DNA of 64,000 nt from an uncultured Candidatus Saccharibacteria bacterium (GTDB lineage Bacteria; Patescibacteriota; Saccharimonadia; Saccharimonadales; AWTP1-31), in the NCBI GenBank assembly GCA_964629815.1, contig CAZVTA010000002.1:130096-194095 (forward strand), written 5' to 3'. How positions within the stretch are numbered: position 1 is the stretch's first letter; each line of letters opens with the position of its first letter. The notes below the pieces were generated by a model that worked only from the letters and a program-made list of their open reading frames with translations, was not told where the DNA came from and searched no databases. The position numbers were made by a program, and so were the translations under genes. Below are positions 1,361 to 1,777 of the stretch, one piece after another.

Positions 1361-1453
1361 GGAGGAGTACCCAAGTGGCTGAAGGGGACGGTTTGCTAAA
1401 TCGTTAGTGGGGCGCAAGTTCCAGCGAGGGTTCGAATCCCTCCTCCTCCGCCA
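1361..1453 (+). tRNA. tRNA-Ser (anticodon GCU), class II with long variable arm, encoded CCA
   Basis: Acceptor GGAGGAG pairs with CTCCTCC. Anticodon stem ACGGT/ATCGT carries loop TTGCTAA (GCT). T arm is GAGGG-TTCGAAT-CCCTC, with discriminator G and CCA at 1451-1453. Confidence 0.9.
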
Positions 1454-1475
1454 GAAGCTAACAGGAAGGCGTGTC

Positions 1476-1682
1476 ATGACTCATAAAACAGTTGCGGTGG
1501 TAGGTATCGGGTTTGCACCTTCTAAGAGTCCGGAATTGGTTCAACCAATGCCAGCACAACAGGAACTCACAGCACCCAACCCCGAGATACAAGCTCATAA
1601 CGCTAAACAGGTGGGCAAAATCTCCACGGGAAAGACTGTGGCCGTCGTCGGTATCGGGTTTGCACCTTCTAAGTCAAAATAA
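1476..1682 (+). CDS. Small protein (68 aa) carrying two copies of KTVAVVGIGFAPSKS; unknown function
   Basis: ATG at 1476 is preceded by AGGAAGG (1463-1469). The peptide is MTHKTVAVVGIGFAPSKSPELVQPMPAQQELTAPNPEIQAHNAKQVGKISTGKTVAVVGIGFAPSKSK. The two 15-codon repeats (1485-1529 and 1632-1676) differ at 7 codons, all synonymous. The track ORF start at 1407 overlaps the tRNA and is rejected. Confidence 0.55.
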   Translation: MTHKTVAVVGIGFAPSKSPELVQPMPAQQELTAPNPEIQAHNAKQVGKISTGKTVAVVGIGFAPSKSK

Positions 1683-1687
1683 CACCT

Positions 1688-1777
1688 GGAGAGGTGTCCG
1701 AGTGGTTTAAGGAAACGGTCTTGAAAACCGTCGTGCCGGCAACGGTACCGTGGGTTCGAATCCCACCCTCTCCGCCA
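1688..1777 (+). tRNA. tRNA-Ser (anticodon UGA), class II, encoded CCA
   Basis: Acceptor GGAGAGG pairs with CCTCTCC. Anticodon stem ACGGT/ACCGT carries loop CTTGAAA (TGA). T arm is GTGGG-TTCGAAT-CCCAC, there is a long variable arm, and CCA lies at 1775-1777. Confidence 0.9.

Follow-up and report, generated by a model that had tools for sequence, protein, structure and literature searches.

A putative microprotein gene with a duplicated short motif between two tRNA-Ser genes of Candidatus Saccharibacteria

This study concerns the spacer between two serine tRNA genes of an uncultured Candidatus Saccharibacteria bacterium, and the short open reading frame (ORF) that fills it, within a 64-kb stretch of DNA (contig CAZVTA010000002.1, positions 130,096 to 194,095; the whole stretch analysed is hereafter the window). 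The genes of the window were located with ARAGORN for tRNAs, with Rfam in sensitive mode for RNA families, and with an ORF listing for ORFs. ARAGORN finds exactly two tRNA genes in the window, and Rfam agrees; both are tRNA-Ser genes, both lie on the plus strand, and both have their CCA end encoded, namely, tRNA-Ser(GCU) at 1361-1453 (RF00005, 55.9 bits) and tRNA-Ser(UGA) at 1688-1777 (RF00005, 60.2 bits). The 234-nucleotide (nt) spacer between them (1454-1687) carries, on the same strand, a 68-codon ORF at 1476-1682 (ATG at 1476-1478, TAA at 1680-1682) encoding the microprotein MTHKTVAVVGIGFAPSKSPELVQPMPAQQELTAPNPEIQAHNAKQVGKISTGKTVAVVGIGFAPSKSK, which has homologues numbered here P0001 to P0029. 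The ORF starts 22 nt past tRNA-Ser(GCU), stops 5 nt ahead of tRNA-Ser(UGA), and is preceded by a Shine-Dalgarno sequence, AGGAAGG (1463-1469, plus strand), located 6 nt before the ATG. An earlier note on this DNA, made from the sequence alone, had described an ORF of this length, with this Shine-Dalgarno sequence, between two tRNA-Ser genes, and its coordinates agree with those obtained here from ARAGORN, Rfam, and the ORF listing. Repeat scanning and codon reading place the same 15-residue motif, KTVAVVGIGFAPSKS, at codons 4 to 18 (copy 1, 1485-1529) and again at codons 53 to 67 (copy 2, 1632-1676), on either side of a linker of 34 codons (1530-1631) that is rich in Pro, Gln, and Glu, variable in alignments, and predicted by AlphaFold2 to be disordered. 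As judged from the sequence, the spacer holds a real, previously undescribed protein gene encoding 68 residues.

The two motif copies belong to a direct repeat of 42 nt (1485-1526 and 1632-1673; 86% identity) with a spacing of 147 nt, that is, 49 codons, and they are the only occurrences of the motif in all six frames of the window. The differences between them had been described in the earlier note as purely synonymous, and codon reading bears this out: seven codons differ and 7/7 of these differences are synonymous, among them the closing Ser, which is AGT in copy 1 and TCA in copy 2. All 6 differences inside the 42-nt repeat fall at third codon positions (P = 5.7e-4), and a chance origin of the pattern is excluded on this codon comparison. 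Nucleotides 1503-1526 are identical to 1650-1673 over 24 nt. In the window genome and in its close relative L005 (loci of relatives are numbered with L), the GIGFAPSK codons of the two copies are identical or 1 nt apart, while in L002 the codons matching the identical stretch differ between the two copies at 5/21 positions, and in L001 at more. The 24-nt identity is hence lineage-specific, because the same codons vary freely at synonymous sites in other genomes, and the simplest explanation would be a short and recent gene-conversion tract between the copies. The serine codons that close the copies had also been set in parallel with the flanking tRNAs, AGY being read by the upstream tRNA and UCN by the downstream one. 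This contrast is real and conserved in six loci per copy, the closing Ser of the N-terminal copy being AGY in the window, L001, L003, L005, and L007, as well as in the single copy of L010, and that of the C-terminal copy being TCN in the window, L001, L002, L003, L005, and L007. A tie to the flanking tRNAs is not needed, however, and an old duplication frozen under purifying selection, with the two copies long evolving separately, explains the contrast; the split would be frozen because a switch between the two serine codon classes must pass through another amino acid.

Comparisons between genomes indicate that it is the peptide rather than the nucleotide sequence that is selected, as had been argued from the repeat. 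Between L001 and L003, the motif shows 11 synonymous and no non-synonymous codon differences out of 15 codons, with 11/11 differences at third positions (P = 1.3e-7), and between L003 and L007 it shows 12 synonymous differences and a single non-synonymous one (P = 1.2e-6). Over the whole ORF, the ratio of non-synonymous to synonymous divergence (pN/pS) is 0.16 for the window versus L005 and 0.26 for L001 versus L003 (pS = 0.66), which are the two closest pairs; the linker must therefore be constrained too, though more weakly than the motif. No frameshift or internal stop codon was found in any locus examined, and linker lengths differ by whole codons. Moreover, purine tracts resembling a Shine-Dalgarno sequence (AGGAAGG, AAAGGGG, ACGGAGG, GAAAGGAA, and AAAGGAG) lie 5 to 9 nt before the ATG, such tracts preceding every start codon examined and standing at the same place in L001, L002, L003, and L007.

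The family to which the ORF belongs was built by a protein search, profile searches, and one exhaustive hidden Markov model (HMM) search. The first protein search returned one 68-amino-acid (aa) relative at 94% identity and four more distant ones of 85 to 89 aa, and the profile and HMM searches extended the family to about 30 sequence clusters of 40 to 96 aa, sharing the motif T-x-[SA]-[VI]-[RV]-G-[IV]-G-F-A-P-x-K. The dual-motif members (P0001 to P0006, with lengths of 68, 81, 85, 86, and 89 aa) carry the motif at both the N and the C terminus, with a conserved start, MGQ[KR]TVAVVGIGFAPK, a variable middle, and a conserved end, T[KR]AVVG[IV][GN]FAPK[KR]S. Most members, however, have a single motif, with the consensus [YFW]-x-T-[VIL]-[SA]-[VI]-R-G-[IV]-G-F-A-P-x-K-x-x-x-L-V-x-P-P, and in many of them two short helices come after it. 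The motif alone is conserved family-wide, its G, G, F, A, and K being invariant and its P nearly so. In the dual-motif members other than that of the window, copy 2 and the residues preceding it (TDPxxMAG...) match the N-terminal module of the single-motif relatives, and the window architecture would therefore be a derived duplication replacing the helical tail. The linker has 34 codons in the window versus about 45 to 55 in the other dual-motif members.

All members that could be placed, by annotation or by shared neighbouring genes, belong to Candidatus Saccharibacteria: L007 and L008 come from uncultured Candidatus Saccharibacteria, and most other loci are tied to this group by shared neighbours, namely comF, HSP20, the pilin genes of a type IV secretion system (T4SS), and a gene for a 186-aa membrane protein. 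In scans with motif patterns, a locus was taken as confirmed by tblastn against the 68-aa query, a strict rule under which the counts underestimate the family; one confirmed locus came from 169 pattern matches in metagenomes, and none was confirmed in viral contigs. The window peptide has no Pfam match, and 22 members searched against Pfam, NCBIfam, and PHROGs gave only sub-threshold matches to single members, none passing a curated cut-off; the best of these aligns P0010 residues 38 to 68 with RsmS/DUF2496 (E = 0.008 to 0.013, 1/22 members, below the curated cut-off). No match was found among PDB sequences at E <= 10. In the literature, we found no paper with the string 'GIGFAP' and none on this gene among work on small proteins of tRNA operons or on Saccharibacteria. 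The family, without counterpart in Pfam, NCBIfam, PHROGs, or PDB sequences, is new. P0006 is named 'predicted CoA-binding protein' (CoA, coenzyme A) by the Joint Genome Institute (JGI), and VAVVGIGFAP resembles the beta1-GxGxxG start of a Rossmann fold; this likeness was considered superficial, since the first Gly is preceded by R in single-motif members and the motif is not followed by a domain. At the margin of the family, a 96-aa ORF, P0026 (L019, 6001-6291; E = 2e-3), has a good motif copy (FRTVATRGIGFAPKKKSHLVP) and lies at the end of a contig of 64% GC with a run of small same-strand ORFs, among them one for an NT5C-type nucleotidase (phrog_420); it could be a motif copy from a phage or a high-GC host lineage, or a chance match.

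The tRNA-Ser/ORF/tRNA-Ser arrangement recurs in relatives, ten distinct loci having the ORF between these two tRNA-Ser genes, in one case with the tRNA order swapped. The pair tRNA-Ser(gct) and tRNA-Ser(tga) encloses the ORF in the window, L001/L008, L002, L003/L004, L007, L013/L014/L015, L016, and L018, and L005/L006 and L009 have the same beginning of the unit before the contig ends. In L010, a single-motif ORF is flanked by the same two tRNA-Ser genes in swapped order. Both L007 and the window have comF and the gene of the 186-aa membrane protein on the flanks of the tRNA-ORF-tRNA unit, and relative to these two genes the unit is inverted in L007. The earlier note had proposed to check relatives for conservation of the arrangement and of the frame, and in the loci examined both are kept, the frame across linker indels. 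Two members do not have a tRNA on each side. One is P0012 (L017), about 400 nt past tRNA-Ser(cga), with a hairpin, a T-run, and a promoter-like sequence between the two as seen by eye; the other, P0008 (L011/L012), lies three genes downstream of serS on the same strand, 81 nt past the last gene of the serS gene run.

At the dual-motif loci, the start codon follows the upstream tRNA after 16 to 22 nt, a gap that contains the Shine-Dalgarno sequence, and 3 to 10 nt separate the stop codon from the downstream tRNA; in L013 to L015 and L018, the stop codon abuts the first nucleotide of the downstream tRNA (0 nt). With gaps of 16 to 22 nt and 0 to 10 nt, the ORF therefore has no room there for a promoter or a terminator of its own. 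The exceptions are L018, where the upstream gap is 184 nt, L010, where the gaps are 72 nt (upstream) and 48 nt (downstream), and the two loci in which the ORF does not have a tRNA on each side, L017 and L011. The gene call of P0017 runs upstream into the 3' end of tRNA-Ser(gct), so that its N terminus (...QREFESLLLRQ) is translated tRNA; its true start is likely 12 nt past the tRNA, which would be the shortest 5' gap in the family. In the window, an extended -10 promoter-like element, TGGTATAAT (1258-1266, plus strand), recognized by reading and located 103 nt upstream of tRNA-Ser(GCU), is a candidate promoter of the unit, and the first tRNA has TGnTAnAAT ahead of it, at a distance of 20 to 103 nt, in the window, L003, L007, L009, L010, L016, and L018. 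A scan for consensus promoters that requires both hexamers found none and did not report the TGGTATAAT element. Past the second tRNA, a hairpin resembling an intrinsic terminator (CGTCC-GTAG-GGACG followed by T7; 1789-1809, plus strand) overlaps the stop codon of the convergent comF gene, and the terminator scan lists it as a minus-strand site only; a hairpin and T-run past the last tRNA were also seen in L001, L003, and L010.

The window unit would thus be a three-gene operon composed of promoter, tRNA-Ser(GCU), ORF, tRNA-Ser(UGA), and terminator, in line with the earlier claim that a protein gene is embedded in a tRNA operon, which the shared strand, the conserved position, and the lack of promoter room between the genes uphold. 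We propose that one transcript would start at the upstream promoter and that the mRNA would be cut from the tRNA precursor, its ends probably being set by 3' processing of the first tRNA and by RNase P cleavage at the second, so that tRNA, ORF, and tRNA would be transcribed and processed together. Hairpins were also seen directly after tRNA genes in other loci. In L013 (1834-1855 and 2185-2206), nearly the same hairpin (CCA-TGAACCGTATGGTTCATGG) stands right after the CCA end of both tRNA-Ser genes, and in L018 a related hairpin (TGTACC..GGTACATGGCTCCG) occurs twice past tRNA-Ser(tga), after 6291. Such hairpins could serve as a signal for processing or could represent a small repeat element.

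AlphaFold2 predicts no secondary structure for the window peptide (mean predicted local distance difference test [pLDDT] score of 52.7), and for the single-motif member P0010 it predicts the motif as coil, followed by two C-terminal helices (H44-53 and H60-70; pLDDT 67). The membrane or amyloid-like hairpin suggested in the earlier note finds no support in this predicted disordered chain. A conserved stretch of 13 residues standing alone in the family is, as far as sequence can tell, the signature of a short linear docking motif. We consider that a translated microprotein gene in a tRNA operon, whose product acts in trans as a disordered two-motif ligand, is the best explanation and a reasonably probable one. 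The product would be a disordered 68-residue peptide bearing two copies of the linear motif T-V-A-V-V-G-I-G-F-A-P-x-K on a fast-evolving linker; each motif would dock onto a dimeric or two-sited partner, probably by adding a beta-strand, with a Gly-rich turn and the invariant Lys coming next. In the single-motif relatives, the C-terminal helices could supply a second motif through dimerization, and in the window type the helices would have been lost and the two motifs carried on one chain instead. Action in trans, which together with bivalency we infer for the peptide, is favoured over action in cis since some members (those of L017 and L011) occur outside a tRNA-ORF-tRNA sandwich.

Several points weigh against this explanation. 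The family is small, with 10 representatives at E <= 1e-3 among 1.84 billion, and the scan of species-representative genomes, under the same strict confirmation and with patterns specific to the dual-motif type, gave 2 confirmed loci from 40 pattern matches; the ORF is therefore not universal in Saccharibacteria. The AlphaFold2 alignments were shallow (8 and 22 sequences), so that 'disordered' may only mean 'not predictable', and the argument for bivalency is drawn from architecture only. Finally, the tRNA-Ser sandwich could be inherited synteny without functional meaning.

A more specific version of this explanation, which we hold as a tentative idea, places the microprotein in the seryl-tRNA system, as one of its components or as its regulator. 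With its two motifs it might, for example, bind the homodimeric seryl-tRNA synthetase (SerRS), or it might bind the tRNA-Ser species with their long variable arms, its expression keeping step with that of both tRNA-Ser genes. The tRNA-Ser(GCU) and tRNA-Ser(UGA) flanks are kept across deep divergence (pS about 0.75), including where the unit is inverted (L007) and where the tRNA order is swapped (L010). P0008 (L011/L012), the clearest relocated member, lies three genes past a true serS (TIGR00414, 423 bits), and by a rough estimate landing within about 4 genes of serS by chance would occur in ~1% of cases. SerRS is an obligate dimer, which fits two motifs. On the other side, this is a single independent relocation event, no Ser residue or codon is invariant in the motif, and serS was not found in the 64-kb window. 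The proximity of P0012 to tRNA-Ser(cga) in L017 was discounted as independent evidence for a link to serine, as L018 puts tRNA-Ser(CGA) and tRNA-Arg(GCG) in the same ancestral neighbourhood. The window peptide contains 5 scattered Ser among its 68 residues; its Ser codons do not form a run, and no Ser is invariant family-wide. Together with the absence of excess RNA structure, this speaks against a codon-based sensor of seryl-tRNA supply, the earlier note having listed a sensor of this supply among candidate roles. A functional tie to SerRS or tRNA-Ser is doubtful at present, and it is slightly more doubtful that the peptide is a dedicated partner binding the SerRS dimer or both tRNA-Ser species and kept in the operon so that its dose follows theirs. 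If true, however, it would be a new kind of small accessory factor of aminoacyl-tRNA synthetases or tRNAs, encoded in the very tRNA operon that it serves. Beside P0008, the gene run of L011 (857-4222) comprises serS (a true equivalog), a 357-aa protein with an alanyl-tRNA synthetase (AlaRS) core, a HAD phosphatase, and P0008 itself; the 357-aa protein covers the AlaRS catalytic-core region only (PF01411 positions 267-357) and is an unusual paralogue in its own right.

It is unlikely that the ORF acts in cis, with the motif as a nascent-chain arrest element ending in F-A-P; a translating or stalled ribosome would then regulate processing, stability, or read-through into tRNA-Ser(UGA). Arrest peptides such as SecM, MifM, and TnaC typically have a short conserved motif in variable surroundings, and here as well conservation is limited to about 13 residues ending in Ala-Pro, with variable surroundings; F-A-P is loosely like the G-I-R-A-G-P of SecM. 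Many single-motif members contain PPD, a known pause motif dependent on elongation factor P (EF-P). Moreover, the stop codon stands 0 to 10 nt from the downstream tRNA, and a terminating ribosome would therefore cover the 5' part of this tRNA, so that translation and RNase P cleavage would compete. The distances from motif to stop codon and from motif to tRNA vary, however, the motif standing at the N terminus where it is single and at both ends where it is double, and purifying selection spans the whole ORF, linker and C-terminal helices included. In L017, no tRNA follows the ORF and the next called gene is on the opposite strand, as is the next gene in L011, and there is therefore no downstream gene for the ORF to regulate at these loci. 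Alternative RNA hairpins, finally, are not evident in the window spacer (fold z = +0.71).

Slightly less probable again is a precursor role, with a product that is secreted or modified, either like a ribosomally synthesized and post-translationally modified peptide (RiPP), with a repeated recognition or core segment, or as a substrate of sortase or pilin type that makes use of the invariant Lys. The product is a small lineage-specific peptide with a conserved module beside a hypervariable segment, an invariant Lys follows the Pro, Gly-Gly precedes the motif in some members, and the window has a sortase gene at 0.9 kb upstream. But the window sortase has no counterpart in L001 to L017, signal peptide and LPXTG are absent, and the conserved module is N- or C-terminal, unlike the fixed polarity of leader-core logic. 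In the contexts with called genes, no gene for a RiPP enzyme, RiPP recognition element (RRE), peptidase, or exporter was found near the ORF. The RiPP precursor named in the earlier note is left without modifying enzyme, protease, or exporter near the ORF, the neighbours being comF, HSP20, T4SS pilins, the membrane protein, serS, and HAD, although such enzymes could have their genes elsewhere in the genome.

We regard as very unlikely a two-site ligand of the neighbouring HSP20, in which [IVL]-x-[IV] would, by analogy, dock in the beta4-beta8 groove of the alpha-crystallin domain, in the way the two IPV motifs of BAG3 dock HSPB proteins. An HSP20 gene is two genes away in the window, L001, L003, L004, L007, L010, and L018; most motifs contain V-A-V, I-S-V, L-S-V, or V-R-I, and the window HSP20 ends with its own I-Q-V. 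This linkage may be mere conserved gene order, however, and the L011 locus has no HSP20; the C-terminal copies of P0002 to P0005 start with K or R, not with I, V, or L; and I-x-I docking leaves the invariant G-x-G-F-A-P-x-K unexplained.

Hardly credible, lastly, is a spacer acting as a non-coding RNA or tRNA-processing element with an incidental ORF, or the RNA-level role that the earlier note had left open for the identical 24 nt: the two identical stretches and an 18-nt partial complement between the 5' leader (1342-1359) and copy 2 (1637-1654) speak for it, but third codon positions are saturated between orthologues while amino acids are kept, synonymous sites of the matching codons are free in other genomes, the frame is intact and Shine-Dalgarno sequences are present in the loci examined, the spacer shows no excess structure over shuffled sequence (z = +0.71), Rfam in sensitive mode gives only weak, chance-level matches in the spacer, far below gathering scores, with only the tRNAs passing, and the duplex between 5' leader and ORF gives z of about -2 at some loci but about 0 at others, with a position that shifts between loci. 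The Rfam, fold z-score, and leader-duplex results led us to reject this reading.

Around the tRNA unit, the window contains several genes that recur with it. The 186-aa predicted membrane protein (655-1215, minus strand) is divergent from the tRNA operon and has no Pfam or NCBIfam match; homologues with 40 to 42% identity adjoin the tRNA-ORF-tRNA unit in L001, L002, L007, L013, and L014, and another lies about 3.6 kb from the ORF in L017. Four tandem TrbC/VirB2-like T4SS pilin paralogues (PF18895; 133, 127, 134, and 218 aa, the 218-aa one having two pilin domains) occupy 3198-5120 on the minus strand, and the same pilin array is found past the tRNA unit in L001, L003, L010, and L018. The sortase-domain protein at 9-599 on the plus strand (PF04203), whose active-site motif is TLYSC and whose gene precedes the tRNA unit by 0.9 kb, was set aside as a conserved partner for want of a counterpart in L001 to L017. 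Possible traces of mobile elements were seen in two relatives. In L017, the last 18 nt of tRNA-Ser(cga), ATCTCCCCTCCTCCGCCA (3945-3962), recur about 200 nt downstream, a repeat that looks like an attachment-site scar of an integrated or excised element. L001 begins with a block resembling a mobile element (1-4030), which stops at tRNA-Arg(gcg), some 0.9 kb ahead of the tRNA-Ser unit, and encodes an N6/N4 DNA methyltransferase, an ArdA anti-restriction protein, a helix-turn-helix (HTH) regulator, an M78 peptidase, and a large serine recombinase.

Among known systems, the closest is PSHCP, a protein of 62 aa called 'hyper-conserved protein' in Prochlorococcus and marine Synechococcus, whose gene has tRNA-Trp upstream and tRNA-Asp downstream, near rpl19 and gltX, is at least partly co-transcribed with the tRNAs, and has a proposed role in translation, at the ribosome (PMC4215834). 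PSHCP has its own promoters within and after the tRNA-Trp gene, a predicted SH3-like fold, and a nearly invariant sequence (PMC4215834). Like the protein described here, it is a small lineage-restricted protein whose gene is flanked by tRNA genes. Its tRNAs accept different amino acids, however, whereas the window ORF is flanked by two tRNA-Ser isoacceptors, and its own promoters contrast with the window mRNA, which is abutted by tRNAs on both sides. Moreover, PSHCP is predicted to be a folded SH3-like domain, whereas the window peptide is predicted to be disordered, with only a 13-residue motif conserved and present twice; this predicted disorder argues against a shared fold.

The mixed tRNA-mRNA operons of Escherichia coli, tyrT-tyrV-tpr, encoding the small protamine-like Tpr, and thrU-tyrU-glyT-thrT-tufB, offer a looser parallel, in which a coding sequence is transcribed from a tRNA promoter and freed by RNase processing. 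In these operons, however, the ORF is distal to all tRNAs rather than between two of them, Tpr is without demonstrated function or conservation like that of the window ORF, and tufB is a large housekeeping gene. Closer in layout is the tRNA punctuation of mitochondrial mRNAs, reportedly described by Ojala, Montoya and Attardi in 1981: here too tRNAs adjoin the mRNA at either end, leaving 0 to 22 nt untranslated, and RNase P and 3' processing would define its ends. The differences are the bacterial chromosome, the Shine-Dalgarno sequence, the complete stop codons, and a processing that we infer. BAG3, with its two IPV motifs, shares with the window peptide two short-motif copies on a fast-evolving disordered linker, a likeness of architecture only. 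What is new relative to these systems is the protein family, the disordered repeat of a short motif, the tRNAs abutting both sides of the mRNA, and flanking tRNAs for the same amino acid.

Annotation usually skips short ORFs and takes tRNA spacers as non-coding, whereas here a spacer encodes a peptide that purifying selection has preserved, with one pair of essential tRNA genes on its flanks, in deeply diverged Saccharibacteria. After PSHCP, this would be the second clear bacterial case of a lineage-specific microprotein sandwiched by tRNA genes, and it suggests that tRNA-punctuated mRNAs exist outside organelles. The family motif can be used for finding and annotating such genes, and the relative from the serS operon (P0008) gives a testable lead, in that the peptide may bind SerRS or tRNA-Ser. 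The genomes of Saccharibacteria are minimal and the cells rely on host bacteria, and a conserved and probably highly expressed microprotein is therefore likely to matter to their biology.

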